Assembly: GCA_000182565.2 (NCBI GenBank)
Contig: KQ257453.1
Source of the DNA: Spizellomyces punctatus DAOM BR117
Taxonomy: Eukaryota
Reading direction: 5' to 3' (one strand)
DNA: 64,000 nt
Both the position numbers and the translations under genes were made by a program. The stretch's first letter is position 1. Every line of letters begins with the position of its first letter. Below, piece after piece: positions 43,556-62,286 of this stretch. The notes beneath the pieces are model-generated. The model saw only the letters and a list, made by a program, of their open reading frames with translations, was not told the DNA's origin and made no database searches.

Positions 43556-45343
43556 CTAAGCTACGGCTGGAACACTCCTGCTGAACACTTCTGGTCTACT
43601 GTGTCCATCCAACATTGATTGCACGATTATCAGCATATTGCAGGTGCTCAGCGTATCTCGATTCCAGTAGCGCATCATCCAGGCTTGCTGACAGTTAGGG
43701 TTGGTACAACCCAGCAATCCATGGACTTTTTCAATCTTGCCTTCTCATCATCACCAAGGTCTTGAATGAGGTCATGTTTTGAAGCCTTTTTCAAGGAAGT
43801 CATCAGATGAACAGTGAGGGCAGACAGATGAGGTTTTATACTCGTCGAGAAGGAAGCAGTTAATCCTGTTGTGCTTAAAGAGGGTGCGCCAACCTTTCAT
43901 CTTTGATGAGGTCTGAAATCTTGCAGTTCGACCGGCATCACTCCAATCTCCCATCACAATGGTAAAGTTTTCACTGTACTTGTTGCATAAGTTGGATATG
44001 AGGTTCAATTCACTCTTCTGACGGTTTATAAATGCATGCCACTTCCACTGCATGTGGGCAGGATGCGAATAGAAGTCCTTGTGGCAGTTCCAGTCGGCAC
44101 GGTGAACGAGGAGATAGCGAGTAAAGTCCATGAGGTTCATCATCTTGTGAGATGGTAGTCATGATTCTATGAGGTCAATACTGCCGGCTTTCATCTGCTG
44201 CCATTCTTTTGCAAATCGACGGCTTCCAGTCTCCACAGCTTGCTGGTTGGCAGTGTAGCGAAATGTACCATTGCCGTCTTGGCAGTAGAGAATGTCATGC
44301 TTGTTTGGGTCGATAACAATGACATTCTCTGCTGCTCGACAAGCAGGTAAGTTTTTCTCCACATAAAGCACCGTCACCTCAGCTGTAAGAGTTGTTGCTG
44401 ACTTTTTCCCACTGCTGCACTTCCCATACTTGTCTGCTTCTGGGTGCTTTAGGTATACAGACACTGAGGTTCCATCTGTGGTGATCGAGCCTTCAAACTG
44501 CATACCGTGGCGAGACCGAAAAGCTTTGGTATGTAGATTACAGATGCGCATCCATAAATTGACCTTCTCGACGGCTTCTGCATCTCGCCACGTGATGCAA
44601 AGGATATGAGAGTAGAGGATGACGGTGTCGATCTGCACATGGCTTTGGATGAGGGAGCGGTGAAGTGGGATTGCACTGAACCGTCGAAATCCATGCTTTT
44701 CATATAGGCTTGACAACCGACAGTAGGCAGGGAAGAAGGCAAGAGGGTCTATAGTAACTGAATATGCGAGCGGCTTGTCTTGATCAGGAAATGGCAGGTT
44801 AAGTGTCCACATCTCTTCTAGAAGCTCACTCTCTTCAGCAGTCAAGTCATCCAGTGACTCGGGCATGATATCAAAAAGAAAAACTGACTTTAAGTAGCAT
44901 AGCCGAGTAAAGAAAGCTTTTCATGCATCACTTTTTGGGGGCAGTTGCTGCTTGTGTCCCTTCACGTCGAGCCACAGATTAATGTACCAAAGGAGCATCT
45001 GCATGAAATGTTCTTGAATGTTGACTTTCAGGTTTGTCATCATACTCGCTGTCAGGTAATTGATTGACTGCTGCTTGCCGTGTAGGTTTGGATGAGGAAA
45101 ATCAACGATGCGGCAGTACTGTTGAACATATGGCAGCAAACAATCCCGCTGTGCCTTCTTTGCTTCCTTTCTTGGATGCCAAGCCTCCCCCTTGTTGAGA
45201 AGATAGAGAATTGCTTCAATTGTATCTTCATTTACCATGGGAAAGGTTGGTGCAGATAGGATGTAGAATTTGAGAGTGTGGGAAGCGTGGTTGGTGAGTT
45301 GATGGATGATGGTGATGTAATCTAGAAGCCGTTGGTGGTAGGT
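43556..45343 (-). pseudogene. Fz1: Fanzor1 RNA-guided nuclease, main body (codon 34 to end), six in-frame TGA stops, no frameshift
   Basis: One continuous frame TYHQRLLDYI...ITTDGTSVSV...VIDPNKHD (RuvC-I)...VMGDWS...LDEYKTSSVCPHC...LGCTNPNC...WNRDTLS (RuvC-III)...RSVPAVA-stop. Confidence 0.95.
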
Positions 45344-45393
45344 TCTGGTAGTGCATCACCCATGGTATATACCATGGGTGATGCACTACCAGA
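45344..45393. repeat. Perfect 50-bp terminal palindrome (left)
   Basis: TCTGGTAGTGCATCACCCATGGTAT|ATACCATGGGTGATGCACTACCAGA. Confidence 0.97.
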
Positions 45394-45496
45394 GGGCCCA
45401 TAGTTCATTCAACTCTACCAGGACCCATAGTACCCAGAAATGCCAGAAAACCCATAGTTCGTTCAACTCTACCAGGACCCATAGTACCCGTAGGAG

Positions 45497-45655
45497 CCAT
45501 ATTTAAACACCCTGTCAACAACTATTGCTGAAACACCCACTCCATATTTAAACGCCCTGTCAACAACTATTGCTGAAACGCCCACTCCATATTTAAATGC
45601 CCTGTCAACAACTGTAGCTGAAATGCCCACTCCATATTTAAACGCCCTGTCAACT
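45497..45655. repeat. Subterminal 45-bp tandem repeat, about 3.5 copies (mirrored near 61870-62030)
   Basis: Unit ccatatttaaacgccctgtcaacaactattgctgaaacgcccact starting at 45497, 45542, 45587 and 45632. Confidence 0.9.
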
Positions 45656-46596
45656 ACACTCATATAAGCTCGACCTGCTTTCGTAATGCTTACGTAATCA
45701 ATAACATCCATCATGTCACGTGGCATTCACTCCATCGCTGCCTCCCACATTCATTTAAAAAAGCATGACTCCCCGGGATTGGCTATGCCCCATTTCCTAT
45801 AAGGAAACAGTTGTATTTTGAGGTATTGAGTTCGAACACCTCATGGCCAATTGTTTGGGCACATTTCGAATGTTGTATATGGAATCGTTTACAGAGGAGC
45901 TGGTTGGATTGGGGGGGGGAGGATGCAAGAAGCTAGCCGCCTTTAAGCAAAAACTTGGACTTGCTATTGATAGTCGCTTTTCCCACTTTACGTCAGCAGA
46001 TTACTATGCATACAACATCAAAGCTACGCATACAACTCACGTGACACATCTTCACCATTTTGGATCAAAAGGTACATTCACTTCACTCATTTCCTTCACA
46101 ATCGTTGAACCAAATAGTGTTAATGGAAGTCACGTGATTTGACATGTCTCAGACATGTTTGCTCATCATGGTTCTTCAAATACAGCTTTGGTTTCCGAGG
46201 TTGCCTATGGCAAAAGTAAAGGAACATTCAATCGCTTCACTGCGCATCCTCGCTTCCTTCATAATCATGGAATCATATGGTGTAAATGGAAGTGAATGGT
46301 GACTTGATTCCACATATACTTACACAAAAAACCCAGACCCAAACGTGTGTACATACTTCCACTATATGAGAAAATAATTTTTTTTTTTGAAGAAGCTTTA
46401 TTCTTTTTTTTTTTTTAAAATCTGTCTCTTAACTGAAGCAAACTACACTTTTGGGTCTGGGTTTTTTGGGTTTCTCTCCATTCATCGAAACAAACTTTTA
46501 CTAAATCATCTCGGGTTTGAGCCATTTTATCGAGTCAGCTTCTCACACTACCCGTTTTACCCATCTCTCACTTGTTTCTATTCTGCCATTACTGAT

Positions 46597-48288
46597 TCAA
46601 CGGAAACATGATTGCAGTTTCAATTGGTAGCCCCTAAATACATCCATCATCCTATCCTTCCCCTTTCCTGTGTCAGAAACATAATTTTTGAGAGTTTTAC
46701 GAAGCACATCTACAAGGTGCTTCTTATCTTTGAATCTCAACTTCATGGATTGGGGCATCCATGCTTTGATGTCCTTCAACTCCAAAACCGCATCTTCTGC
46801 TTCCTCCACATTATCCTCCAACCATTCCTCCAAGTTATCTACCACTGCAGATACCTCTTCTCTCCAATCTTTGCATGAGTCTGGAATGTTCTGAAACCGG
46901 TTTTGTAAATACTTCATATGCCCTTCCAGTAACCATTCCAAAATATATGGTTGCCACACATGAAACTTATCTGAAATGAATGGGTCGGCTAGGTACTTGT
47001 ATTCCAATTTGCTGTCCTTCACCTCTTGTTCGGTCTTCAAAAACTTGGAGCGAAAGGGTAACACTAGCATGCGCTCTACAAATGCTGTGTCGGAGGTATC
47101 ATATTTGGGCTGGCAGCGGTCGTTGAATATCATAATCCATTTGGTGGTAAGTGCCACAATTTCATCCTTTTTGCTATGTGGTCTTCAGCCAGTTTCGCTT
47201 GCATTCCCCCCATGGTTCTTTTTGGCTCTTTTGGTATCAAGTGTCTTGTGCTCGTCCATCTCTTCGAAGATTGCGAGCAAGTATCCAGCATATGCAAATA
47301 TTGCAGCATTATGACCATTCTGATTGGAATGCCTGGTGGAACGATATATATGTTCGGCATTTCCCTGCTTTGCATACCCGCCAAAGGCTATTTCCAAAGC
47401 CTGCGCAAACTTTGTCTTGCCATTGTTACCATCGATTTTGTCCTTCAGGACGCGGAAAATTTTCTCCGGATGGTCACCACGGAGGCAATATCCAGCGTAT
47501 ATGTGGGCAATATTGCGCTCCTCCTCCACAGGGAAGAGACGAGTAACAAATTCAAGCCAATCGTTGCGCAATTTGGCAGAAACATCGTTTTCGGTAGAAA
47601 AATAATCGTAGCCTACTGTCTTTGTTATAAGCACATCCTTGCTATATGGTTTCAACTTCCCATCCACAAGGTCCACATAGCCATTATTGCATCCAATCTT
47701 CAAAGGGTCCTTATCACATCTTTGCAGAAAAGTAGCATTGTATACTTCACACTTGAAACAGGAAATGATGGATGTGATGTGAGAGTTGGTAGTCAGCAGT
47801 GATTTTGCGAAGTTCTCTGTTTCCAAGCAGCGTTTGTACTTATAGGCCTTTTTGGAATCGGGGTCCACTTTGGAGAGCAAATCTAAGAAAATTCTGATGC
47901 GTTCGTCCCAGATGGGGTTCATGTGCTTGACCATAAATTGTCGGACAATCTCGCAGTGTTCCGATATAGGTTGCCACCCATCCCTAAACATCCAAACCGT
48001 CGTTCCGTCATACACAAACATCCCATCACTCAGTTTGCGTAGAAGTTGTGCCATAGAGAGATGGCTAGGGGATTTGACTGCTTCTTGTAGTTCGCCGTCG
48101 AGGTGTTCGCCCATCAGGTCCATGTCGGCATCATCGGAAGCATCTTCTTCAACTTCCACAGCATTTTTGATGTGATATTTTTCGTTAAATTCCATTGAAA
48201 CAAGCATGGGTTTGATGACTAATGGAACGTCAAAATTAGTATCCTCTGTAACATATGCCTGACATTCTTCTAAAAGTTCCGTGGCTAC
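46597..48288 (-). pseudogene. D5-like (SF3) primase-helicase, 5'-truncated by the LTR element, one in-frame TGA at 47185
   Basis: D5_N-like KIGCNNGYVDLVDGKLKPYSKDVLITK, Walker A GNNGKTKF, Walker B LAIFEE, motif C region IFND..DTAFVERMLVLPF. ORFs 47185.. and 46597.. are in the same frame. Confidence 0.88.
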
Positions 48289-48860
48289 TGTAGCGAACGA
48301 CTCTGATAAACCGGTTCGCTCAAAGGCATCAGGTGACCACGATTGAGGTTTCCGCAATTGTAACCTAAGCTTCGAAACCCCTAAGATCAAGCTCGGTTCT
48401 GGGCTACACCAGCGCAGCATGAAGGATACGTTACGCAGCCATGATCGATCATGGCGATGGTCCGAGATGGGAAGATCGGACGCCGCCACCCTAATGAAGG
48501 CTACGGAAACTAGTGTAGACATTACCGTAGCATATTCTTGTATAAAAAGAGGAATTCAATAAAATAAGTCGGTGGCCAGAAGCCGTAGCGACACTAAATC
48601 CCCACAACTAGCTTCTCAACTCCAATCTTAGGTTAACAGGAACCTAACAGAGCGCTTCAATGGCCTGATCACCCACACTGAAGCCTCTAAATCCTGCTCG
48701 GTTCACAACTAACTGACTCTCCTTGCCTCTCGCCCTCAAGTCGCTACCGATGCCCAAAGAAAGGATTTGGAGACTACGATTCCTAGTACGGACACCCACA
48801 CAACCTGCTAGGAGACCCAAGTTGTCTTTACCATAGTCTACCAACAAAAAATCTGTTACA
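48289..48860 (+). repeat. 5' LTR (572 bp)
   Basis: TGTAGCG...TGTTACA, direct repeat of 53929-54500, with TATAAAA and AATAAA inside. Confidence 0.95.
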
Positions 48861-48875
48861 TGGTGGAGAAGCGCG
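48861..48875 (+). promoter_or_regulatory. Primer binding site, probably tRNA-Ala
   Basis: TGGTGGAGAAGCGCG directly after the 5' LTR. Complement ends ...UCUCCACCA, typical of tRNA-Ala 3' ends. Confidence 0.7.
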
Positions 48876-49002
48876 ACAAACTGCCTTCCCCTCTCAAATT
48901 CAGCTGAAAACCTTATTCGGTCATACCGAAACTCTTGCGCAAACTGAGATCTGCTCAGGTAGCTACTCGGAAACCTTTTCTCTTGTTTCGGAAACAGACT
49001 TC

Positions 49003-52000
49003 ATGAAACCGAGAATGATGCCGGTCAAACGCTCTCCAACGCGAGGCCACTCACCTGTGATCCAGACTCGTAGTCAGGGTCCTGCGGAGGACGTCGAAGT
49101 CCCTCCCGCAACACGCCCAAGGCGTTCAGGGACCACTTCCGTCGAACCGGAAGCCCCTAACTTGGCCACGATGGCCTCTGAAGTGGCAGCGTTAAAAGAA
49201 GACATTGCCCGCTCGACTGCTGCAATGCAGTTGGCAACTCAAAATCTTACGGAACAGCTTCATAGGCTTTCCGAATGTCAGACAGCGGCGGATGAGCGCC
49301 TCGCACGAGCCTTAGAAGCCCTAGCACATCGCCCACTGCCTGAACAACCTCTCATAGCACGAGCTACAAGAGAACGGTCCGCAACCCCGTGGGAAACGTC
49401 GGACACACCAAGGGAGCGTACCGAACCAAGTTTTTCAGGTCCGGTGCCTCCAATCCAAGTGCCAGCGGCCCCGTGGGCCAGCAACACCAAGGTCGATTCC
49501 TTGAAAGCAAAGGACGTACCCAAGTTTACGGGCAAAAGAAACCAAGACATTGAAGAATGGCTCAACAAAGTCCAACTTCTTCAAAACATTAGCGCAACAT
49601 CGGATGCCAGGATGGTACAGCTCCTACCAGCCATGATAGCCGAGAAAACCCCTGCCGACGCTTGGTTTTACACTCTGGAAGCCCAGGAAACTTGCTCGTG
49701 GACCTGGAAAAGGTGGAAAGAAGAACTGCTTCGAGAGTTCCGAGGTCCCCTAACCGAGTCCAAGTGCAAAACCGAATATGTGCACTGCCACGCGAACCCC
49801 AAAGAATTTCGCAGCTTCCTCGCATTCATTGACCACAAAACTCATCTCCGGCGCCTCGCATACGGCGACCGGGCAAACATAGAATGTCCCACTGACCAGC
49901 ATTTCGACCTAATAGTCGAACAATTGCCCAGCGACATCCAAATCATGGTCAAATCCTGTAACATCACGAACCTGACCAAATTAAAAGACTTCCTGCGCCT
50001 TTATTTCGGCTCTGATGACACCAGAAAACGAGACCCTTGCTACAGCGGTGCTGCTGAAGCTCAGAAGAAGTCACAAAAGACCGGAACCGACAAAGGCCCT
50101 AAGCAGATGGCTCAACATAAAACCGGAAACCCCAAAAAGAGTCGCGACGGCCCTCAGAAGATGGTTCCGGACCCCAACACGGAACCACCGGCACCCTGCA
50201 AATTCTGTCAGAAAAAGCATTGGAATGTTTTCTGCTGGCAGAACCCGAACCGAAAAGGGTTCTACGCCCAATTCATTTCTCGCTACGCGGAACTCGTCCG
50301 ACCCCTGCAAGATGCTATCCAAGAGGGCGTTCGCGAATACCAAGACCTTAAAAAGGGTCGCGCTGACCCGAAGAAAGGCGCTGAAAAGCTCAATTCACCA
50401 TCCATGCTTGACATGGCGGTGGCCCCTACAATAACAGCCACCGGAGCCCGATTTGAGGTTTCGCAACATCCGAAATCTAGCTCCTCAGACCTACCGGCGG
50501 TCAATCTACGCCAATCATCGCTGGCGGACTTACCCATTGACCCCTTTTGTGTCGGACGCCTTGCTCGCAAGCGCCCCGACCAAGGTCTGCGCAGATTTAT
50601 CGCGAAGCGTGAAGTTTCATGGACCGATTCCCGAAACTCTGCCTTTGCAGCCGCCAAGCAGGCTCTGACAACAGCTCCAGTGCTCGCGGCACCCAGAAAA
50701 GGGTTCCCCTACACCCTTCACAGTGATGCTTCCTACACAGCGTTTAATGTCACGCTTGAACAGTTACAGCCGGATGCTTCTAAATGCCCGCTGTGCTACC
50801 ATTCCCGAGGCACCACCACCTCAGAAAAGAAGGCCCCCCCCGTCGAACTCGAGGCCGGATGCCTCATTTGGGGCCTCGGAAAACTCCGCCCATACCTCGA
50901 AGGCCTGCCTTTCACGGTCATTACTGATCACCGAGCTCTTTTGTGGCTCGCTAAATACAAAGGCGAGAACCGTAAGCTTCTCCGCTGGGCCCTCGATCTT
51001 AGTTACTGGTCCGAATGGATGACAATCGTTCACAAACCAGGACGTTTTCACATTGTCGCTGATACACTTTCACGGCTACTAGGAGCGGAAACCCTACTCT
51101 GCTCCACCGCGACCCAAATATGGGTGTCGAAATGCGGAAGACGACGGCTGCGCACCACACCAGCTGCTCTCGCACCTTCCTCGACACTGGCAGATGCCGT
51201 CTTTCGTCTGGCCTTACAGCCTGCACTCATTGCCGCCATCCGCGCTGGCCTCACCGGCCAGCTCCACCCCATAGCCCAACAGGCCTGCATGCTCCTATGG
51301 GAGACCAGCCCCGACACCTACACTACAGCCGACGCGCGCTTTCTTCAGGACTGGCAACGTGCAGATAACCTGCTGTGGCACCGTTTTTCAGTCTCCAAAG
51401 ACCTTTGGCACCTCTACGTGCCCCCTGCTTGCACCCCCAAGGTGCGCAAGCTTTTTCACGAGGGGGGAGGACACTTTGGATTCGAAAGAACCTATGCTAG
51501 AGCTGCAGCACAAGTCTGGTGGCCGAAAATGGCACAAGATTTCAGAAAACATTGCGCAGGATGTGAAACCTGCCAACGCTCAAAAAGGGTACCGCAACTG
51601 ATTCCGGGGTTGTTGAAACCCATACCACCAGCTCCAGGACGCTGGACAGTCATCACGACTGACTTCGTAACCAAGCTCCCACTTACTTCCAGAGGGTACG
51701 ATGCCTTTTGGCTAATAGCTTGTAAATGCTCAAAGAGGATCCACGTATGGCCCCTCAAGAGCACTGCGACAGCTACTCAGGTCGTGGAACTATTTATAGA
51801 ACGCTACGTCCCATTGCACGGCATCCCGGAAACTATCATCTCAGACCGCGACCCCAAATTTACGAGTCGATTTTGGCAGGAGGTCTGCAAAAACCTAAAG
51901 ATTAATCAAGAGCTCACCACAGCCTACCACCCTCAAGGTGATGGACAATCAGAGAGAGACAACGCAACGGTCTTGCAGGTCCTTACCACAATGGTCAACA

Positions 52001-53871
52001 CCCGATTAGACGACTGGGACACCTTTCTTCTGGTTGCAGAATTCATTATCAATGATACGGTACACGAGGCGACAAAAATGATGCGGTTCAAGATGGACCT
52101 AGGCTATGAGCCCCACAATCCACTGGCGGACATCGTTGAAAGGCTGTCAGAAACCAGAAATGCAGATGTGGAAGAGCTCTGTAAACATCTCAGAGACCTA
52201 AACATCCTTATCCGGGATCTGATGATCGAGGCCCAGGACTCGCAGAAAAGATATTACGATTTATCGCGACGACATCTGGAGTTCCGGAGAGGAGATAAGG
52301 TGCTTCTGAGCACAAAAAACCTAGCAGGGTATGAGTCCAAGATCGCTCCGAAATGGCTGGGACCAGTCACGGTGACCGACTGCAACCCTCTCCACGACAA
52401 CTATGAGCTAAAACTGCCAGACAAGATGAGACGACTTCACCCATGGTTTCACATATCAAAATTACGTCCGTACCAGAAGCCTGTCGACGCCGAAACTGAG
52501 GAAAGGATCGTGGAAGCACAAATGGAGGATTCCGACGCTTCAAAAGGCGAGTTCGAAGTGGAAGCGATAGTAGACCATCGAACCAGGCGCGGAAAGCATC
52601 AATTTCGAATACGTTGGGCCGGATACCCACCCCATGAGGATACCTGGGAACCAGAGGAAGCCCTAACAGAGGCTTCCGAAGCCTTAGAAGAGTACTGGAG
52701 ATCCAGAGCTCCCACTAGCGCACTAGTAGAGGACTCCTTGGTAGTCAGCTTTGCAGGCGACACCCTGGCTTACGCTTCTGACCACCAATGCTTCACGATT
52801 TATCCGGACAATAGCTCACGTGATAATCACACCCTCTCACCAGAAAGAAAACCAGTTTTGCGCGGCTTACCTCACCAGTCGAGAACACCACACCAAGCCT
52901 CCCGATCATGCTTATGTGCATCTGAGCTGTCAAAATCAGCCGGCGATGACCTTAAAAGGACGCCCCTGCACACTCCCCCTCTTTTTTCTTCTTCAACTAC
53001 CTATGACCTATCTCCCTTACAGACCTACTCTGCTTTGCAAACCTTGTCTATGGACACCGAGACAAAAGCTTTCGTTTCCAACACCATGACCACCGATATC
53101 CGAGGACAACAAGGAGTCAGCATCCTCTCTACCCTTGAGGAAGGCTATCCCTGGTCAGAAGTAAGCGACGCCTTCGCTGCCGAGAACTCTATCGAGCGGC
53201 TCGGAGCAGCTATGGCCACCTGGGTCGAAGTTTGGATTCGTGAGCTGTTCGAAGACCCAAACAAACCCCTCGAACACTATCGTGGTGAAGATTGGGTGGT
53301 TGACGGGGCTTCGAAGCCGTACGCCACGAGCCAGCCCCTCACGATGCATATTGCGGAGCCCTACAGTAGGGCTTCCGACGGCAGTCAAGCAGCTGTCGGT
53401 ATCATCGCCGACACAAAAAAGATTGGGAAGAGATTACGGGACGTACCCTGCACCGCCTGGCTTGACGCTGGGGTCCCTCAACATGCGGCCGGAAACCCCA
53501 AAACGGCCCGCTTCACCCTCTGGCCCGATCGCGAGGCCCACGATTTCGCGGACATAGCCATCGAAGCCGCGAGAGCAGTGTTGTTAAAGCTAGCCAACGC
53601 AGCTGAAACCACAGAAGAGCAGCTCCGTCCCAAACATCGGGAGCACGCCTATTACCACTTTCGAGCGGTTAACTTGAAAAGGGCCGCAGAGACGTTCACA
53701 GCCCTCTACGTAACCCGAGCCAACGGTTCCAGGACACCTGGAACCCCGGCTCCGGAAGCCACTGACCAAATTTGGTTCTGCGCGAACGTCATGGGGCGCG
53801 CTACCATAATCTGGACGATCAACGAAGACAGCCTTGAAGCTGACGACGACTATCCAGTTGCGTCATGGTAG
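49003..53871 (+). CDS. Gag-(deleted PR/RT)-RNase H-integrase-chromodomain polyprotein with unknown C-terminal extension
   Basis: Gag PKFTG..IEEWL and knuckle CKFCQKKHWNVFC. RNase H LHSDAS..ELEA..ITDHRAL..ADTLSR. IN zinc finger H..GGHFG..CETC. Core TDFV, SDRDPKF, HPQGDGQSE. Chromodomain FEVEAIVDHR..RWAGY..DTWEPE. Confidence 0.92.
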   Translation: MKPRMMPVKRSPTRGHSPVIQTRSQGPAEDVEVPPATRPRRSGTTSVEPEAPNLATMASEVAALKEDIARSTAAMQLATQNLTEQLHRLSECQTAADERLARALEALAHRPLPEQPLIARATRERSATPWETSDTPRERTEPSFSGPVPPIQVPAAPWASNTKVDSLKAKDVPKFTGKRNQDIEEWLNKVQLLQNISATSDARMVQLLPAMIAEKTPADAWFYTLEAQETCSWTWKRWKEELLREFRGPLTESKCKTEYVHCHANPKEFRSFLAFIDHKTHLRRLAYGDRANIECPTDQHFDLIVEQLPSDIQIMVKSCNITNLTKLKDFLRLYFGSDDTRKRDPCYSGAAEAQKKSQKTGTDKGPKQMAQHKTGNPKKSRDGPQKMVPDPNTEPPAPCKFCQKKHWNVFCWQNPNRKGFYAQFISRYAELVRPLQDAIQEGVREYQDLKKGRADPKKGAEKLNSPSMLDMAVAPTITATGARFEVSQHPKSSSSDLPAVNLRQSSLADLPIDPFCVGRLARKRPDQGLRRFIAKREVSWTDSRNSAFAAAKQALTTAPVLAAPRKGFPYTLHSDASYTAFNVTLEQLQPDASKCPLCYHSRGTTTSEKKAPPVELEAGCLIWGLGKLRPYLEGLPFTVITDHRALLWLAKYKGENRKLLRWALDLSYWSEWMTIVHKPGRFHIVADTLSRLLGAETLLCSTATQIWVSKCGRRRLRTTPAALAPSSTLADAVFRLALQPALIAAIRAGLTGQLHPIAQQACMLLWETSPDTYTTADARFLQDWQRADNLLWHRFSVSKDLWHLYVPPACTPKVRKLFHEGGGHFGFERTYARAAAQVWWPKMAQDFRKHCAGCETCQRSKRVPQLIPGLLKPIPPAPGRWTVITTDFVTKLPLTSRGYDAFWLIACKCSKRIHVWPLKSTATATQVVELFIERYVPLHGIPETIISDRDPKFTSRFWQEVCKNLKINQELTTAYHPQGDGQSERDNATVLQVLTTMVNTRLDDWDTFLLVAEFIINDTVHEATKMMRFKMDLGYEPHNPLADIVERLSETRNADVEELCKHLRDLNILIRDLMIEAQDSQKRYYDLSRRHLEFRRGDKVLLSTKNLAGYESKIAPKWLGPVTVTDCNPLHDNYELKLPDKMRRLHPWFHISKLRPYQKPVDAETEERIVEAQMEDSDASKGEFEVEAIVDHRTRRGKHQFRIRWAGYPPHEDTWEPEEALTEASEALEEYWRSRAPTSALVEDSLVVSFAGDTLAYASDHQCFTIYPDNSSRDNHTLSPERKPVLRGLPHQSRTPHQASRSCLCASELSKSAGDDLKRTPLHTPPLFSSSTTYDLSPLQTYSALQTLSMDTETKAFVSNTMTTDIRGQQGVSILSTLEEGYPWSEVSDAFAAENSIERLGAAMATWVEVWIRELFEDPNKPLEHYRGEDWVVDGASKPYATSQPLTMHIAEPYSRASDGSQAAVGIIADTKKIGKRLRDVPCTAWLDAGVPQHAAGNPKTARFTLWPDREAHDFADIAIEAARAVLLKLANAAETTEEQLRPKHREHAYYHFRAVNLKRAAETFTALYVTRANGSRTPGTPAPEATDQIWFCANVMGRATIIWTINEDSLEADDDYPVASW

Positions 53872-53918
53872 AAGCGAGGTTCGGGCACTCACAGACGAGT
53901 CGCCGAACCTTCTTTTTC

Positions 53919-53928
53919 GAAGGGGGGA
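53919..53928 (+). promoter_or_regulatory. Polypurine tract
   Basis: GAAGGGGGGA immediately before the 3' LTR. Confidence 0.85.
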
Positions 53929-54500
53929 TGTAGCAAATGACTCTGATAAACCGGTTCGCTCAAAGGCATCAGGTGACCATGATTGAGGTTTCCGCAATTG
54001 TAACCTAAGCTTCGAAACCCCTAAGATCAAGCTCGGTTCTGGGCTACACCAGCGCAGCGTGAAGGATATGTTACGCAGCCATGATCGATCATGGCAATGG
54101 TCCGAGATGGGAAGATCGGATGCCGCCACCCTAATGAAGGCTACGGAAACTAGTGTAGACGTTACCGTAGCATATTCTTGTATAAAAAGAGGAATTCAAT
54201 AAAATAAGTCGGCGGCCAGAAGCCGTAGCGACACTAAATCCCCACAACTAGCTTCTCAACTCCAATCTTAGGTTAACAGGAACCTAACAGAGCGCTTCAA
54301 CGGCCTGATCACCCACACTGAAGCCTCTAAATCCTGCTCGGTTCACAACTAACCGACTCTCCTTGCCTCTCGCCCTCAAGTCGCTACCGACGCCCAAAGA
54401 AAGGATTTGGAGACTACGATTCCTAGTACAGACACCCACATAACCTGCTAGGAGACCCAAGTCGTCTTTACCGTAGTCTACCAACAAAAAATCCGTTACA
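53929..54500 (+). repeat. 3' LTR (572 bp)
   Basis: TGTAGCA...CGTTACA. Confidence 0.95.
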
Positions 54501-54501
54501 A

Positions 54502-57500
54502 AAAGGACTGACAATACTCGCGAACACTGGAATCGTTACACTGGATGCAACAACTGATTCATCTTCAACAGTCACTGGCGCTCTACAGGTGGCAGGAGGA
54601 GTTGGCATAAAAGGAACGGTTTACATGGGTAAGTATGCTATTATATCAAGTCCCACCGCAGCAGCCTTCCAGATAAATAATGGGGCATTCGGCTTCGCTG
54701 ACTCAGCTGGACAATGGTTCACAAACACATTAGCGAATGATTACGTCTTGCGAACAAGCACCAGTAATTTGCATATTGGTACAAACGGAGCGACGGCTTC
54801 TAATCTGGATATTCTCTCATCCAGGAATGTTATTATCAATATGACGACAGATTGTACTTCCACAACAACTGGCTCCTTTCAAGTCAAAGGTGGAGTTGGC
54901 ATCGCTAAATCACTGTACATTGGAGGGGATGTATACACAAATGGTGTGAAATTGGCTACTGAAAGTTCTCTAACAGCATCCGTTGCTACGAAGCAAAATG
55001 CAAGTCCTTTACTCGATGCAATAAGTGGTTTAACAACGACACCTAATACATTCATCATGGGGGCATCGAACGGTTTTACAGCGACACCTGTTTCCACTAT
55101 TCTTGGTGGATACCAACCTCTTCTTACTACATCATCCTCATTGAATGTGAATTCTCTGATGACCAGTGGTGGGATATTTGTACAAGGGGCTATGGATATG
55201 GTGTTCCGTGTTGATAATGTAGGCAATGGACTCTTGACAGGTGGCTTACTTGTGGAAAAGGATCTAAATGTTGAAGGACTGATCATTCAAAATGGTGTCA
55301 AGGTGGCAATGCAACAATGGGCTGTTGCTATGATGACTAGCATGACAACTCCTCTCAGTCAATCCTTGACATTGCTTCAAACACTTGTTCAGAATAACAA
55401 GACCGCCGCAGATATGGCGCTTGCTACTAAACAAAGTGCTTCTCCATTACTCAATTCCATCAGTGGTTTAATACCGGCGGCTAACACATTCATCATGGGA
55501 ACACCCACAGGGTTCTCAGTTGTTCCTACATCGAATATACTTTCCTCATATCAACCTCTTATTACCTCATCGACTGCGCTATCATTTAACAGCGCTACTG
55601 TTGGCAGGGGTATAACCATTCAAAATGGCGCAGCATCTACAACAATGTCCTTAGTGAACACTGGGAGTAACATTACATGGGGCATGAGAGTTGCCGGAAG
55701 CACAGGAGACGGAACATTATCAGCAGGCGGATTCGGTCTAAATAGTTCTTATAACAATACAGGCTTCGTTCTGAGAGTTTCCAATACAGGCGTAATGCAG
55801 ATACCAAACACAACTGATTCATCTAGTGTGACAACAGGTGCTTTCCAGGTATCAGGTGGAGTTGGCATAGGAAAAACTCTAACCCTAGGAGCAGGTGGAG
55901 GAGGATTGCAGCCTGCGGCCATAGTCATCAATGCGCCTTCAAGTGCTACTGCATCTATGGCCGTTCTGATTAGTAACAATGCTGCTTCGAGTAATTCATG
56001 GGGTATATACCATGCTGCAACTAATGGAACAGGTATACTTACCAATGGGAGCCTCGGGTTTTATAACTATGGAACTAGCGCCCATCAATTCATCCTCAAA
56101 GCCAATGGAACCATTGCAATCACTTCCACTACAGACTCATCGTCAACTATAACGGGCGCATTGCAGGTATCAGGAGGTGCAGGAATTGCTAAATCACTGT
56201 ACGTCGGTGGTGACATTTTCTCCAATAATCTCAAACTTGCAACCGAGAGTTATGTAGGGATGGCCATTGCTAATAAACAGGCATCGAGTCCACTATTATC
56301 ATCCATAAGCGGTCTTGCACTATCTGCAAATTCATTCATTGTTGGAAGTTCTGCTACATCATTCTCCACGAAAACTGTTGAAGAGGTGAAGTCAATTCTA
56401 GGTGTTACGAATGTCGACCTCTCAGGGAAGCAAAATGCAAGTCCTTTACTCGATTCCATTGCCTCGATGTCACCAATGAGCAATATGTTTCTCATGGGAG
56501 ATGATGTCCAAGGATTCACTCTCGCAAATGATGTCACTGTGCGAAGTATTTTAAACATTGTCAACTATGCCCCCAGCATATCAGCACTGCAAACATCGAA
56601 ACAAGATGTTATAATGTCTTCCAGCAATCTGTTGGTAAATACAATTCTTGCTAATGATACATCCGATGCACAAACCGTATCAAGTGGGGCTCTACAGGTT
56701 AAAGGAGGTATAGGGGTTTCTAAAAGCATCTTCTCAGGTGGAAACATTACAGGAAAAGTTCTTATAGCAGCCTCTACAGGTGGATATTTCAAGTTGAGAA
56801 GCGACACTCCCTCTATGAAAGGTGACTACACTATCTCCTACAACAACTCCGGAGACGCCCTTCACGTCCACCTCGCCGGCTCGTCTGATAGCATAGACCA
56901 ACATCGTTATGAATTCGGTCATTATTCCAGTGATACCTTTGGAACATGGAATAGCTGATTCTCTGTTAACACCTACACCGGAGACCTCATCTTGTCCGGT
57001 AATCTAACTATTGGTTTGCCACTTAATGGGCTACGGGCTATTATTTTGAAAAATCTCGACCCAGGAACCAATGCTTGTGCCATCCAATACTTCCAGAATG
57101 CCGCAGGGAGTGCTGTTATGTTTTTGAACGGAAACAATAGGAGTGTGGATGGGGGAGTAAATACATTTACAATAAGGAACGATGCAGGGGGAGTGCGATT
57201 GCAAGCGCAGGGAGCGAAGGGTATTACTATTGCATCATCGACAGGAAATGTCATAGTTGAAAGCACCACTCCGGCTTTATCGAGTACAACAGGTGCATTG
57301 GTGGTGAATGGAGGTGTCGCTGTTGGAGCCCATGTAGTGGCTGGAGGGAATCTTTATAGCAATGGCCCAGTTTACTCGAATGGTCAGGTGTGCGCAACTC
57401 AGTCATGGGTGACCGGTCAGACATTCCTAAGAAATGTTCAAGTTTTCAAACTGTTGACTAAAGATGTATGGCAATCCAACAATGCCTCGAAAGTTTTCTA

Positions 57501-57792
57501 TGTTTCAACACCAGGCAAGGTACTTATGGAGTGGACAATACGCTTGCATGGCAATGCAAACTCAAATGGTACACTTTCCATCTTCCTTGGACAAAGTGCC
57601 GGCTCAATGCCTCTCGTATATGCTTCAGACTTCAATTTCAACAGTGGAATTAACACTACGCTGACAGCCACATTCATTCTTACAGGGATGGCCGATAACG
57701 TGGCTTACTTCACAAATTTTAGTATCAGTCAGGCTGCTCCTGATAATACCACAGATGTTACCCTCATCAAAATCACGGAACTCGGCCCTTAG
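54502..57792 (+). pseudogene. Viral tail-fibre/spike-like repeat protein, 5'-truncated, one in-frame TGA at 56956
   Basis: About 6 copies of TTDSSSxxTGA(L/F)QVxGG(V/A)GI and 4 of KQxxSPLLxxIxx. ORFs 54589..56958 and 56992..57792 share a frame, which is open back to the LTR edge. Confidence 0.75.
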
Positions 57793-57843
57793 AAACTTAG
57801 TGCACTACGCTATGATTAAAAAACAAAGCTATGTAAACTTACA

Positions 57844-58164
57844 ATGCAACGTGTTGATATAGATTATCATTTGGTATTCAATATCAGGGATGCCATCAAA
57901 GGTGACATGGATAAGTTTTGGAGATATTGCAAGAGCATGTTGACCGGTAGTGACAAGGCAAAAATCATACTGTATCTTAAAAAAAATCAAGAGAACCAAC
58001 CGATTTTTGATAAAATCATGTCAATTGTCCACCTGAGCAAATTGGATCATTTATGCTTCAACTGTACCAGTTATCTCGCAATTTTGAATGATTGTATATT
58101 GCTAGGGCATGAACATAATGAAAAACTGTTCATTTTAGAGATGCGGATGGAGGAGGTTCAGTAG
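57844..58164 (+). CDS. Hypothetical protein of the virus-like element (106 aa)
   Basis: Intronless ATG ORF tightly packed after the fibre gene. Confidence 0.5.
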   Translation: MQRVDIDYHLVFNIRDAIKGDMDKFWRYCKSMLTGSDKAKIILYLKKNQENQPIFDKIMSIVHLSKLDHLCFNCTSYLAILNDCILLGHEHNEKLFILEMRMEEVQ

Positions 58165-58187
58165 GATACCATGAGCCACAGTTCTAT

Positions 58188-58547
58188 TCAACACACAACA
58201 ACCTCAATATCCATAGAACTAGATAGACTCTTAGTACATTCAAGGATTAAGTCTAATTGTTCAACTGCAAATGATTCCTTTTCACTCTTATGCTGCATTT
58301 GACAATATGTTCCTATAGTGGTAGTAGATAGTAAGAGAATCATACCAGGCCAACTAGTTTCAAAATGTGTAGGATATTCGAAAACATATTGAGCTGCCCA
58401 TGAAACTGGCTCAAGTGCAGCCACAAGACGTTCTTCTCTACCATCCCCAGCGCCCGTGAGTATTCCATCTATCGCTCGGTGAATAACCTGGGAATAAAAA
58501 ACACATCGGAACTGCTTTGCATTTTCAGGTTCTTGGTCAGACGACAT
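58188..58547 (-). CDS. Hypothetical protein of the virus-like element (119 aa)
   Basis: Intronless ATG ORF converging on the previous one, with an AT-rich upstream region. Confidence 0.5.
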   Translation of the reverse strand: MSSDQEPENAKQFRCVFYSQVIHRAIDGILTGAGDGREERLVAALEPVSWAAQYVFEYPTHFETSWPGMILLLSTTTIGTYCQMQHKSEKESFAVEQLDLILECTKSLSSSMDIEVVVC

Positions 58548-58716
58548 TATACAATGCCATCAAAATGTGAACGTTAAGATACTTTATATAATAATGACAC
58601 TTTACATCATTGTTCTACATCATGTAGCTAATTTGATGTAGTAGTTGATGTGTACCAACTCTTATAAAAAGCTAGTATGCAATAGCAGAGCTTCTGCATT
58701 CAAACACAACCTAAAC

Positions 58717-59662
58717 ATGTCTTTCTGTAACGACGAGGACGTCTTCGAGAGATCGCGAGTAAGCCCAAATCGGACGCGGGAAGCACGAATCGCGTGACCA
58801 ACTCCACCGATTGGGTTACCGCGACCGAAAAAACCGGTTCGGAGAATGGCAATTGGCGCATTAGATTTCAGCGTGCCTCGTACAACCTGTGGAGGCCCGA
58901 GCCAGTGCGGAAAAGGAAGAGATCGGTACCGCCACCAATAAATCAGTTGCGGTGCAGCGACACCCATTAGTTTAGTTTAGTTTAACAGTTTATCCAAGAA
59001 TCTTGTATAAAAAGGATGTATTCAATAAAATAAGTCGGGGGCAGAAGCCGTAGCGACAAAAAATCCCCATAACTCGCTTCTCAACTCCAATCTTAGGTTA
59101 ACAGGAACCTAACAGAGCGCTTCAACGGCCTGATCACCCGTACCGAAGCCTCTAAATCCTGCTCGGTTCACAACTAACCGACTCTCCTTGCCTCTCGCCC
59201 TCAAGTCGCTACCGACGCCCAAAGAAAGGATTTGGAGACTACGATTCCTAGTACGGACACCCACACAACCTGCTAGGAGACCCAAGTTGTCTTTACTGTA
59301 GTCTACCAACAAAAAATCCGTTACATTTCCCTGTTACTCCAAAGCATGAACACTTTGCTAATTGCATCATGCTCTTCAAGACGGACATGTTGATGGCAAT
59401 GGATAAGCGAGGAAGGTGCATCCATATCAACACTTCCAACTTTCCTGAAGTTCGCCGTATTATGAATGATGAAGATTTGTTTCGCATCTTTGTTCATAAC
59501 AAAACCAAAAGGAGCGTGGGGGAAAAGAATCGGATTTGCCCTGTTTGTTCGCGCAACTATGATATTCCTGATAAAGTCAAAACGGCAACAGAAAAGGAGA
59601 TGGCTCTCTCCGGTGTTTGTAGTGATGCCTGCTGGGATACAGCAACTAAATTCAATGAGTAA
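58717..59662 (+). pseudogene. Small Zn-finger-like protein interrupted by a solo LTR
   Basis: Removing the LTR and one TTTC restores MSFPVTPKHEHFANCIMLFKTD...CPVC...CSDACW. Confidence 0.7.
58726..59325 (+). mobile_element. Solo LTR (600 bp) with 4-bp TSD TTTC
   Basis: TGTAACG...CGTTACA termini. The 3' part (about 59000-59325) is nearly identical to the other LTRs. TTTC at 58722-25 and 59326-29. Confidence 0.92.
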
Positions 59663-59854
59663 GAAGTGAATGTGAGCGGGGGCGTGGGGGGCATGTGGGG
59701 GGCGACCTTTTGAATGGTAAAATTTTGGGACCAGCTAGAATGCGGGGATGCATGAGAAGCAGACACGTCATTGTTCTACATAACCATGATGTAGTAGTTG
59801 ATGTTTACTAATTCTTATAAATTGAATGCATACCATGCTATAGCTAAATCCAAA

Positions 59855-60336
59855 ATGGCTTCCCTCTTTCCCCCAGAAATAGTAACCTTCATCGACGAGT
59901 ATTGTGACATTGACACTAAGATTAAACTATGCAAGGCAACCGGTCTCGGATGGGAGAGGGTCAAAATACCAAATGAGCCACAGTTTCTTCATAAGATGAA
60001 GAGAATCAATCAGTTGCCTTTCTATGATGAATATGTATGCGACCATGAGACAGAATGCCACCCCTTTTTTGGAAATATGAATGCAACGACAAGTTACTAC
60101 GCATAGAGATGCATCAAGAAGGCAACAACGAGTTTTACTTTGTTCTACTCAAAGATTTTGAGAACGAAAACTATTCGTATGCAATGTATCAAGAGTATTA
60201 CCATTATGGTCATGAGGAAGGCTGTATTTTCAGAGAGTATGATGGTAGGGATAAGCGATCAGATTTTATAGCACATCGTGGCAGGGACAGGCTGGTAATG
60301 AGACAATTGTGGGGCAGGGCGATGGATGTTTTTTAG
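59855..60336 (+). pseudogene. Duplicated small gene, copy 1 (frameshifted near 60065), F-box-like N-terminus
   Basis: MASLFPPEIVTFIDEYCDIDTKIKLCKA. Similarity to copy 2 continues in another frame (KYEC..IEMHQE..EFYFVLLKDF). Confidence 0.7.
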
Positions 60337-60456
60337 GGCGTGGGGGGCATACACGAGAGGCAGATACGTCGTTGTTCTACATAACCATGATGTAGTAGTT
60401 GATGTTTACTAATTCTTATAAATTGAATGCATACCATGCTATAGCTAAAATCCAAA

Positions 60457-60897
60457 ATGGCTTCCCTCTTTCCCCCAGAAATAGTAACCTTCATCGACGA
60501 GTATTGTGACATCGACACTAAGATTAAACTATGCAAGGCAGTTAGTCTCGGATGGGAGAGGGTCAAAATACCGAATGAGCCACAGTTTCTTCATAAGATG
60601 AAGAGAATCGATCAGTTTTATAAGATGATGAGAATCAATCAATTGCCTAAATTTGTATGTGACCATATAAAATGCCGCACCGTAACATTTTTGGGGAAAT
60701 ATGAATGCATAGAGATGCATCAGGAAGACAATGACGAGTTTTACTTTGTTCTACTCAAAGACTTCCATGATGAGGATTATTCATATGCATTTTATCGAGA
60801 GGATTACCGTCATCAGGTGTTATGGCAAAGGAGAGATATTGCATTTTTTGAGGTGTTATGGCAACGGAAGGAGATTGAAAGGGCGAATAAAGAGTGA
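60457..60897 (+). CDS. Duplicated small gene, copy 2 (146 aa), F-box-like N-terminus
   Basis: Intact paralogue of 59855..60336 with the same upstream motif. Confidence 0.7.
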   Translation: MASLFPPEIVTFIDEYCDIDTKIKLCKAVSLGWERVKIPNEPQFLHKMKRIDQFYKMMRINQLPKFVCDHIKCRTVTFLGKYECIEMHQEDNDEFYFVLLKDFHDEDYSYAFYREDYRHQVLWQRRDIAFFEVLWQRKEIERANKE

Positions 60898-60916
60898 GAA
60901 TGTATGGAGGGATGTA

Positions 60917-62182
60917 CATGTTTCCATTGAATCAGTAATGGCAGAATAGAAACAAGTGAGAGATGGGTAAAACGGGTAGTGTGAGAAGCTGACTCGATAA
61001 AATGGCTCAAACCCGAGATGATTTAGTAAAAGTTTGTTTCAATGAATGGAGAGAAACCCAAAAAACCCAGACCCAAAAGTGTAGTTTGCTTCAGTTAAGA
61101 GACAGATTTTAAAAAAAAAAAAAGAATAAAGCTTCTTCAAAAAAAAAAATTATTTTCTCATATAGTGGAAGTATGTACACATGTTTGGGTCTGGGTTTTT
61201 TGTGTAAGTATATGTGGAATCGAGTCACCATTCACTTCCATTTACACCATATGATTCCATGATTATGAAGGAAGCGAGGACACGCAGTGAAGTGATTGAA
61301 TGTTCCTTTACTTTCGCCATAGGCGACCTCAGAAACCAAAGCTGTATTTAAAGAACCATGATGAGCAAACATGTCTGAGACATGTCAAATCACGTGACTT
61401 CCATTAACACTATTTGGTTCAACGATTGTGAAGGAAATGAGTGAAGTGAATGTACCTTTTGATCCAAAATGGTGAAGATGTGTCACGTGAGTTGTATGCA
61501 TAGCTTTGATGTTGTATGCATAGTAATCTGCTGATGTAAAGTGGGAAAAGCGACTATCAATAGCAAGTCCAAGTTTTTGCTTAAAGGCGGCTAGCTTCTT
61601 GCATCCTTCCCCCCCAATCCAACCAGCTCCTCTGTAAACGATTCCATATACAACATTCGAAATGTGCCCAAACAATTGGCCATGAGGTGTTCGAACTCAA
61701 TACCTCAAAATACAACTGTTTCCTTATAGGAAATGGGGCATGGCCAATCCCGGGGAGTCATGCTTTTTTAAATGAATGTGGGAGGCAGCGATGGAGTGAA
61801 TGCCACGTGACATGATGGATGTTATTGATTACGTAAGCATTATGAAAGCAGGTCGAGCTTATACGAGTGTAGTTGACAGGGCATTTAAATATGGAGTGGG
61901 CATTTCAGCTACAGTTGTTGACAGGGCATTTAAATATGGAGTGGGCATTTCAGCAATAGTTGTTGACAGGGTGTTTAAATATGGAGTGGGCGTTTCAGCA
62001 ATAGTTGTTGACAGGGCGTTTAAATATGGCTCCTACGGGTACTATGGGTCCTGGTAGAGTTGAACGAACTATGGGTTTTCTGGCATTTCTGGGTACTATG
62101 GGTCCTGGTAGAGTTGAACGAACTATGGGCCCTCTGGTAGTGCATCACCCATGGTATATACCATGGGTGATGCACTACCAGA
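60917..62182 (-). repeat. Right terminal inverted repeat (about 1266 bp)
   Basis: Reverse complement of 45344-46610 with scattered transitions and homopolymer length differences. Confidence 0.95.
62133..62182. repeat. Perfect 50-bp terminal palindrome (right)
   Basis: Same 50-mer as 45344-45393. Confidence 0.97.
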
Positions 62183-62187
62183 TAGGT

Positions 62188-62286
62188 CTCATTAGGCAGG
62201 AAAGCTTTTGCAAAGGAAGTTTTGTTGCATGTATGTAAGGTGGGTTTGTCAAGCTTTTCAAGCTTTTGCTTTTTCTTTGGCGGCAT
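62188..62286 (-). pseudogene. Fz1: Fanzor1 N-terminal 33 codons, separated by the nested insertion
   Basis: MPPKKKQKLEKLDKPTLHTCNKTSFAKAFLPNE with an SV40-like NLS. It joins 45343 in frame once the insert and one TSD copy are removed, giving about 628 aa. Confidence 0.93.

Follow-up and report, generated by a model that had tools for sequence, protein, structure and literature searches.

A probable decayed polinton-like or virophage-like provirus with perfect terminal palindromes in the chytrid Spizellomyces punctatus

Double-stranded DNA (dsDNA) viruses of fungi are barely known, and the replication of genome ends is an open question for the polinton-like viruses (PLVs) and virophages that lack a protein-primed DNA polymerase (pPolB). 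We analysed a 64,000-nucleotide stretch of contig KQ257453.1 from Spizellomyces punctatus DAOM BR117 (assembly GCA_000182565.2; hereafter the window) and identified a sharply bounded insertion of 16,839 bp at positions 45344-62182. This element has long terminal inverted repeats (TIRs), a target-site duplication (TSD) and a perfect palindrome at each tip. It is very probably the decayed provirus of a polinton-like or virophage-like dsDNA virus, of the kind represented by the PLVs and midsize eukaryotic linear dsDNA (MELD) viruses of chytrids.

The closest described ends come from the protist Halocafeteria seosinensis. The available text of a preprint on this organism reports 52-nt palindromes at the extremities of TIRs, beside the TSDs, in four virophage subtypes and one PLV subtype (10.64898/2026.07.28.741278). 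In the same passages, the palindromes go preferentially with non-pPolB replicases (D5 primase-helicase and PolA-S3H) and with particular RVE integrases, and hairpin-primed replication is proposed, with accidental annealing as the alternative. The available portion of Starrett et al. (2021) describes six Powellomyces MELD viruses that have adenovirus-fibre-like genes and encode PolB, or PolA, S3H or other replicases (PMC8502044). Bellas and Sommaruga (2021), in the passages at hand, report one integrated PLV bearing a major capsid protein (MCP) gene in S. punctatus, inside a large contig, and an 'S. punctatus group' of 27 PLVs; some integrated PLVs have TIRs, TSDs of 5-7 bp and rve or tyrosine recombinases (PMC7805220). 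According to the excerpted text of a further preprint (10.64898/2026.06.19.733378), many chytrid genomes contain A32-like ATPases in presumed viral regions.

The S. punctatus element resembles the Halocafeteria elements, as the available preprint text presents them, in having a tip palindrome of similar length (52 nt there, 50 nt in the window) at the TIR end directly beside the TSD, a non-pPolB replicase and transposable elements nested within it. The Halocafeteria elements differ in their stramenopile host and in being complete copies with capsid modules and RVE integrases, which the S. punctatus copy lacks; the comparison is one of descriptions, not of sequences. With the Powellomyces MELD viruses the element shares a chytrid host order and the combination of adenovirus-fibre-like genes with PolA/S3H replicases, whereas those viruses are, in the portion available, assembled and apparently episomal or complete genomes (PMC8502044). 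The published S. punctatus PLV is likewise integrated in the same host species, but it was detected through its MCP (PMC7805220, passages at hand); the element in the window has no MCP, so the published PLV is probably a different locus. The element also has the traits of the PLV/virophage supergroup: a replicase of the non-pPolB primase/polymerase-S3H type near one TIR, and TIRs with a TSD within the 5-7 bp range.

A reading of this DNA made earlier from its letters alone (the sequence-only reading) had suggested that the element may be a distinct family. We do not follow it there. A tip palindrome, a TSD and a non-pPolB replicase are already described together in the Halocafeteria preprint text, and chytrid PLVs and MELD viruses with fibres and PolA/S3H replicases are already published, as far as the available passages extend (PMC7805220, PMC8502044). 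The element is a degraded fungal instance of a known PLV/virophage kind and holds no new kind of gene. In the main-text passages covered, we found no description of terminal palindromes for a fungal element.

The borders and ends comprise the following features:

43772-45343, continuing beyond 62188, minus strand: interrupted target, a Fanzor1 gene (SpuFz1 paralog) with two in-frame stops
45339-45343, unstranded: left TSD, TAGGT, from flank comparison and the empty-site joint
45344-46610, unstranded: left TIR, 1,267 bp, aligned against the right arm
45344-45393, unstranded: perfect 50-nt terminal palindrome, with a 23-bp stem and a 4-nt AT loop as single-stranded DNA
45393-45489, unstranded: subterminal iterons CCCATRGTW at 27-bp spacing, in two 54-bp units
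45497-45654, unstranded: 45-bp tandem repeat, 3.5 copies inside the TIR, with a mirror copy at 61872-62029
60917-62182, unstranded: right TIR, including the 50-nt palindrome at 62133-62182
62183-62187, unstranded: right TSD, TAGGT, from flank comparison and the empty-site joint

The element inserted into a Fanzor1 copy through a 5-bp staggered cut of its target. The Fanzor1 flank matches the structurally solved S. punctatus Fanzor (PDB 8gkh, E 2.8e-281), and the target is a pseudogene with two in-frame stops of its own. When the element and one TAGGT are removed in silico, the minus strand reads through the junction in an open frame of 231 aa, which by itself says little, as one in three frames would stay open. 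The empty site itself is present in sequencing data. One Logan contig (run X2, depth 4.5, shorter side 38 letters) and one RNA read (run X15) join position 45338 directly to 62183, skipping 16,844 bases, the combined length of the element and one TSD copy. Another uninterrupted paralog form, joining 45341 to 62195 with TTT between, is found in contigs of runs X1 and X2 and in six RNA reads. These joints are most simply read as other Fanzor copies that show the pre-insertion site, because the flank has 4-6 times the single-copy depth. The exact borders, the TAGGT duplication and the Fanzor interruption that the sequence-only reading had proposed are thereby borne out. The RNA reads that cross the empty-site joint indicate that uninterrupted Fanzor copies are transcribed.

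The TIRs were detected as two adjoining inverted-repeat pairs (699 nt and 574 nt, 98% each). Global alignment of the arms gives 23 mismatches, all of them transitions, over 1,267 nt (about 98.1% identity), in agreement with the roughly 1.27 kb claimed earlier. The arms also differ by one 1-nt gap inside a G run, for a total of 24 differing positions, and their identity ends abruptly at 46611. The element ends read TCTGG...CCAGA. Ends of the form TG...CA with a shifted TSD were ruled out, as the flanks would then show no repeat; a composite of two independent foldback elements was likewise ruled out, as the terminal sequence does not recur at the inner end of either arm.

The 50-nt palindrome occurs in the window only at the two tips (45344-45393 and 62133-62182; two matches without mismatches, and no match in any of 100 shuffles). 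As single-stranded DNA it has a predicted folding energy of -28.2 kcal/mol (z -11.5), with none of 200 shuffles equally stable. The iteron CCCATRGTW is present six times in each terminal 145 bp: four copies have the same orientation at 27-bp spacing and two are inverted within the palindrome. The two termini hold 12 of the 16 matches in the window, for which 1.7 are expected in total.

Two large genes of the element survive in part:

46597-48288, minus strand: replicase remnant with D5_N and superfamily 3 (SF3) helicase domains, C-terminal 563 aa, a single frame of 563 codons
54501-57792, plus strand: fibre gene remnant, C-terminal 1,097 codons in one frame, partly annotated as SPPG_02563

The replicase remnant adjoins the left TIR and contains a single in-frame TGA (47185-47187). 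Its 5' end is truncated exactly at a long terminal repeat (LTR) of a nested retrotransposon described below, and the part that would code for a PolA-like domain is absent. The remnant contains a D5_N domain (Pfam, E 4e-11) and, after it, an SF3 helicase with Walker motifs. When combined with ten homologs into a profile, it matches the African swine fever virus (ASFV) C962R primase-helicase (PDB, 2e-5) and poxvirus D5, confirming the D5/SF3 helicase noted earlier, and the homologs match PHROG 'DNA primase' families (1e-47). We identified 13 homologs at E <= 1e-3 among 5,085 candidates. Full-length forms have 726-895 aa, and the named homologs belong to S. punctatus, Phlyctochytrium, Powellomyces, Geranomyces and Rhizophlyctis (Spizellomycetales plus Rhizophlyctis). 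SPPG_08461, on a different S. punctatus contig, is 48% identical to the remnant, and Powellomyces hirtus protein P0007 is 46% identical. In the alignment column of the TGA, nine of ten homologs have arginine and one has cysteine.

The N-terminal part missing from the window's copy was studied in the full-length homologs. Its roughly 280 residues have no Pfam match in the 11 replicase sequences, DNA_pol_A included, even at E <= 10, and the ESM Atlas gave a lead of 0.77 only, to a PolA cluster. A model of this domain from an alignment of six full-length homologs has a pLDDT of 89.7. In a Foldseek search of the PDB, all of the 50 best matches listed are family-A DNA polymerases (Klenow, Taq, Bst and apicoplast Pol), with a best E of 2.4e-5 and a TMq of up to 0.57. 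Among BFVD structures, the Zamilon virophage DNA replication protein matches best (E 6e-18, TMq 0.83, 25% identity), and further matches there are viral proteins of 700-1,050 aa, including a Qinghai Lake virophage 'helicase/primase/polymerase'. The Pfam hit, the homologs and the fold matches together identify the gene at 46597-48288, on the modelled structure, as the C-terminal two thirds of a virophage-type polymerase-helicase. The element thus carried a replicase of the Sputnik/Zamilon type, with family-A-polymerase-like, D5_N and SF3 helicase parts. We take this to be the type known as TVpol or TVpol-S3H and represented by Sputnik V13; the name TVpol-S3H reportedly goes back to Iyer et al. 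in 2008. Searches with the family-A-polymerase-like domain also returned 5,680 cluster representatives at E <= 1e-3, mostly proteins of 680-950 aa.

The fibre open reading frame (ORF) is 98% identical to SPPG_02563 of S. punctatus DAOM BR117, contains a single in-frame TGA (56956-56958), and has its 5' end truncated exactly at the other LTR of the nested retrotransposon. The encoded protein is rich in the motif T-x-S-S-x-T-G-A-x-Q-V-x-G-G-x-G-I, and 151 database proteins are related to it at E <= 1e-3. The closest is SPPG_05485 of S. punctatus (76% identity, and 91% over the C-terminal 277 aa); SPPG_07206 of the same species (62%) and a 1,824-aa protein of Spizellomyces 'palustris', encoded on a 22-kb contig, are also close. 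More distant relatives carry phage tail-spike, chaperone or C1q domains. The full-length homologs P0016 and P0017 exceed the Pfam cutoff for Av_adeno_fibre (24.6 and 24.5 bits vs 22.7). This family is the N-terminal motif of avian adenovirus fibres, a part absent from the window's copy, which aligns with the C-terminal 1,100 residues of P0016 and P0017. Both aligned homologs have arginine at the TGA column. The predicted fold of the C-terminal 277 aa was unusable (pLDDT 38.7). The element thus carried a long vertex-fibre gene of the adenovirus-fibre-like type, in line with the fibre-like gene claimed by the sequence-only reading.

The identification as a PLV or virophage-like provirus is based on two genes, a virophage-type replicase and an adenovirus-like fibre, and on the structure of the insertion, namely its long TIRs, its 5-bp TSD and an empty site that matches it exactly; it agrees with the endogenous dsDNA virus proposed earlier. 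LTR-retrotransposon sequence makes up 6,812 of the 16,839 bp, or about 40% of the element (48289-54500 and 58726-59325):

48289-54500, plus strand: nested Ty3/gypsy LTR retrotransposon of about 6.2 kb, from its LTRs and gag-pol domains
48289-48860 and 53929-54500, plus strand: Ty3 LTRs, TG..CA, 572 bp, with 17 differences
49003-53871, plus strand: Ty3 gag-pol ORF of 1,622 aa, the largest ORF of the insertion
58726-59325, plus strand: solo LTR of a related retrotransposon variant, TG..CA, with TTTC flanking both sides

The gag-pol ORF contains RNase H, integrase zinc-binding and core, SH3 and chromodomain regions (Pfam); Pfam reported no reverse transcriptase or protease domain in it. The nested Ty3 element has no TSD (GCTAC in the left flank, AAAGG in the right). 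The replicase and fibre genes are divergently oriented, and in both the truncation lies exactly at the outer end of a Ty3 LTR. Because the nested element lacks a TSD and both genes are cut at its LTR ends, recombination between Ty3 copies probably removed the middle of the element; this is the simplest account. Two Ty3 elements would have inserted after integration, one into the replicase gene and the other into the fibre gene; recombination between them would have deleted the 5' ends of both genes with everything in between. The deleted middle presumably held capsid, packaging and integrase genes. The sequence-only reading had missed the nested Ty3, which explains, by this presumed deletion, why genes for a capsid, a packaging ATPase, a protease and an integrase are missing.

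Several observations weigh against this account as a whole. Capsid, penton, ATPase, protease and native integrase genes are all absent from this copy; Pfam and PHROG searches of the element's ORFs returned no double jelly-roll MCP, penton or A32-like packaging ATPase. No pPolB was found among ORFs of at least 80 aa, with a small loophole left by the central deletion. The only integrase (rve) in the region is that within the Ty3 gag-pol, so the earlier statement that no pPolB, capsid, packaging ATPase or native integrase survives holds. The polymerase-like domain is missing from the window's copy, the content of the deleted region is reconstructed rather than seen, and the virus assignment depends on two genes and their relatives. 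The ends TCTGG...CCAGA are unlike the TG...CA of retroviral-type integration products. IMG/VR viral contigs contain no close relative of the element: a scan with the replicase alignment gave one distant locus (L001, 21% identity) from 15 pattern matches, a scan with P0010 gave no relatives from two matches, and the 24-nt palindrome arm had no match.

A large cut-and-paste DNA transposon, or a composite with two foldback ends, could have captured a helicase and a repeat-protein gene. Such an origin would suit the absence of capsid and packaging genes and the presence of small orphan ORFs, and DNA transposons, too, typically have long TIRs, subterminal iterons and a short TSD. We consider it very unlikely: Pfam and PHROGs detect no transposase in the element's ORFs, neither arm carries a separate inverted repeat at its inner end, and both large genes come from families known in virophages and MELD viruses. 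In addition, the element is a single copy with diverged relatives in the genome, unlike the product of a transposon burst. Still less credible is that the TIR pair is an assembly artefact. Mis-joins can create long inverted repeats, and no single public-run contig spans the whole element. However, the arms differ at 23 sites and one indel, and the TSD and exact empty site are present. One X1 contig matches the window without differences across the junction of the D5 gene and the LTR (46658-48328), another matches without differences within the right TIR, and an X2 contig (45625-47771) crosses the inner border of the left TIR. With these arm differences and contigs over the junctions, an artefact is very unlikely, and we retain the reading of a decayed PLV/virophage-like provirus.

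How such a virus integrated and replicated its ends can be outlined as a model. Integration would have been carried out by a DDE (rve-type) integrase whose gene has since been lost, with which the 5-bp TSD is compatible. The genome would be linear and double-stranded, and each 3' end would fold on itself at the terminal palindrome and so serve as its own primer in rolling-hairpin style, replacing protein priming. The folded ends would be extended by the element's family-A-like polymerase together with the SF3 helicase, and the iterons are putative binding sites for an end-recognising protein. A whole palindrome at each integrated end is exactly what the extended duplex end of a rolling-hairpin replicon gives. 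Judged from the palindrome and by analogy, hairpin priming is plausible, with a chance that we place slightly below even. The term 'hairpin-ended' used by the sequence-only reading stands in its palindrome part, which is perfect over 50 nt; the hairpin itself was not observed, and a palindrome is no proof of one. The earlier judgement that the ends are unsuited to protein priming is upheld.

Established systems offer partial parallels to this model. Like parvoviruses, which replicate by a rolling hairpin, the element has terminal palindromes within inverted terminal repeats and an SF3 helicase in its replication protein, and its duplex integrated form holds the full palindrome at each end. Unlike them, it is dsDNA of at least 10 kb, shows no HUH nickase domain and has relatives that encode their own polymerase. 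Polintons (Mavericks) are similarly large elements of viral ancestry with long TIRs and a short TSD. They have a 6-bp TSD and AG...CT termini, whereas the S. punctatus element has a 5-bp TSD, palindromic TCTGG...CCAGA termini and a replicase of another type, without pPolB. The Sputnik/Zamilon-type replication protein has the same domain order as the full-length chytrid homologs. Sputnik-type virophages, whose genomes are circular, differ in their MCP, of which the element has none.

Other roles for the palindrome leave the PLV/virophage-like identity unchanged. The palindrome may be a dimeric binding or cleavage site for an integrase or an end-binding protein, or a by-product of fold-back repair, with replication started by the primase activity of the polymerase-helicase or by enzymes of the host or a helper virus. 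The palindrome arms share a 9-mer that is iterated four more times inside at 27-bp spacing, which resembles a protein-binding array. Virophage-type replicases are annotated as primase/helicase/polymerase, so hairpin priming is not required, and the available Halocafeteria text offers accidental annealing at single-strand breaks as another explanation (10.64898/2026.07.28.741278). The palindrome is, however, perfect, identical at both ends and placed exactly at the tip beside the TSD, and a similar 52-nt tip palindrome occurs, as the available preprint text describes, in unrelated host lineages and specifically with non-pPolB replicases, which fits a replication role better. We hold a non-priming role to be possible and rather doubtful. 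The free genome could instead have had covalently closed hairpin telomeres, such as those of poxviruses, ASFV and chloroviruses, the 50-bp palindrome being the replicated duplex form that a resolvase or protelomerase cuts at its centre. A 23-bp stem with a central 4-nt AT loop would suit this form, long TIRs with subterminal tandem repeats resemble the ends of large DNA viruses, and the helicase part is D5/C962R-like. Closed ends seem improbable to us nonetheless: they would need opening before an integration that makes a TSD, the full palindrome stands at both ends beside the TSD as an extended duplex end would leave it, and Pfam and PHROGs found no HUH, resolvase or protelomerase domain in the surviving ORFs.

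If fold-back priming is what the palindromes serve, it would be a third solution for genome ends beside protein priming and circularity. The element is an independent second instance, in a distant host, of a tip palindrome with a TSD and a virophage-type replicase, and with it the hairpin-priming hypothesis appears general and open to testing in tractable chytrids. A broader proposal is speculative, and we lean against it: fold-back priming on a tip palindrome of about 50 nt may be a general and ancient strategy of PolA/S3H PLVs and virophages in stramenopile and fungal hosts, and the chytrid elements may be remnants of still-infectious, fibre-bearing dsDNA viruses of fungi.

The decay of the element follows a consistent pattern. 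Exchanges between CpG and TpG/CpA account for 18 of the 23 TIR differences and 16 of the 17 Ty3 LTR differences, and two further TIR differences form an adjacent CA/TG pair, as expected if one CpG decayed differently in each arm. The observed/expected ratio of CpG is 0.59-0.66 in native parts of the element vs 0.91-0.94 in neighbouring host sequence (1-43000). These figures point to cytosine methylation of the element at CpG. Methylation and deamination would then have produced the divergence of the TIRs and both CGA to TGA stops. Recoding was considered as an explanation of the in-frame TGAs and rejected in favour of CGA to TGA decay, given the arginine columns in homologs and the CpG-deamination signature. 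With the Ty3-mediated deletion, this would make the locus a clean case of a provirus dismantled by retrotransposon recombination and CpG deamination.

The element also appears silent and unique. In RNA run X15, of which about 6% was read, interior bins have a depth of 0-0.34 vs about 190 on the solo LTR. Contig depth (about 3.5 for the interior, against 14-22 for the Fanzor flank and 25-55 for the LTR element) indicates a single copy, and the paralogous fibre contigs in these data reach only about 91% identity. A single copy with diverged relatives fits separate integrations of related viruses over transposition bursts. Taken as a whole, the account of a single-copy, silenced and decaying PLV/virophage-like provirus, together with the proposed integration, hairpin priming, deletion and decay, is on balance probable.

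In a chromatin immunoprecipitation (ChIP) DNA run (X16), interior depth (45734-48201 and 59308-61775) is about 1-1.6 per orientation vs about 100 on the Fanzor flank, a flank/interior ratio of about 60-100 vs about 5-7 in the contig runs X1 and X2. The low interior depth could be a ChIP bias against a silenced region or could mean that the insertion is absent from that culture.

The remaining ORFs lie towards the right TIR:

57844-58164, plus strand: orphan ORF of 106 aa, no family, weak Atlas matches of 0.85 at most
58188-58547, minus strand: orphan ORF of 119 aa, no family
59369-59662, plus strand: orphan ORF of 97 aa with cysteine pairs, no family
59744-60813, plus strand: tandem duplication of about 600 bp (59744-60207 and 60345-60813) with ORFs 59801-60106 and 60457-60897

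The blocks of the tandem duplication are 81-96% identical, and their paralogous small ORFs start MASLFPPEIVTFIDEYCDIDTKIKLCKA. The small ORFs (97-146 aa) match no Pfam or PHROG family, and the 146-aa ORF has no homolog (three candidates, none of which scored). The sequence-only reading had described compact intronless small genes; we see ORFs without detectable homologs and do not claim them as genes. No tRNA genes were found.

Other copies confirm 58726 as the start of the solo LTR, since their contigs and reads begin or join at this point, after a polypurine tract. The solo LTR is abundant in RNA and DNA reads alike; in X15 its depth of about 190 comes from both orientations, with poly(A)-like loose ends at 59063; this LTR family is actively transcribed somewhere in the genome. 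Outside the element, a neighbouring host gene (37926-40154, plus strand) encodes an ordinary protein with DUF3684 and sacsin domains (E 2.5e-150).

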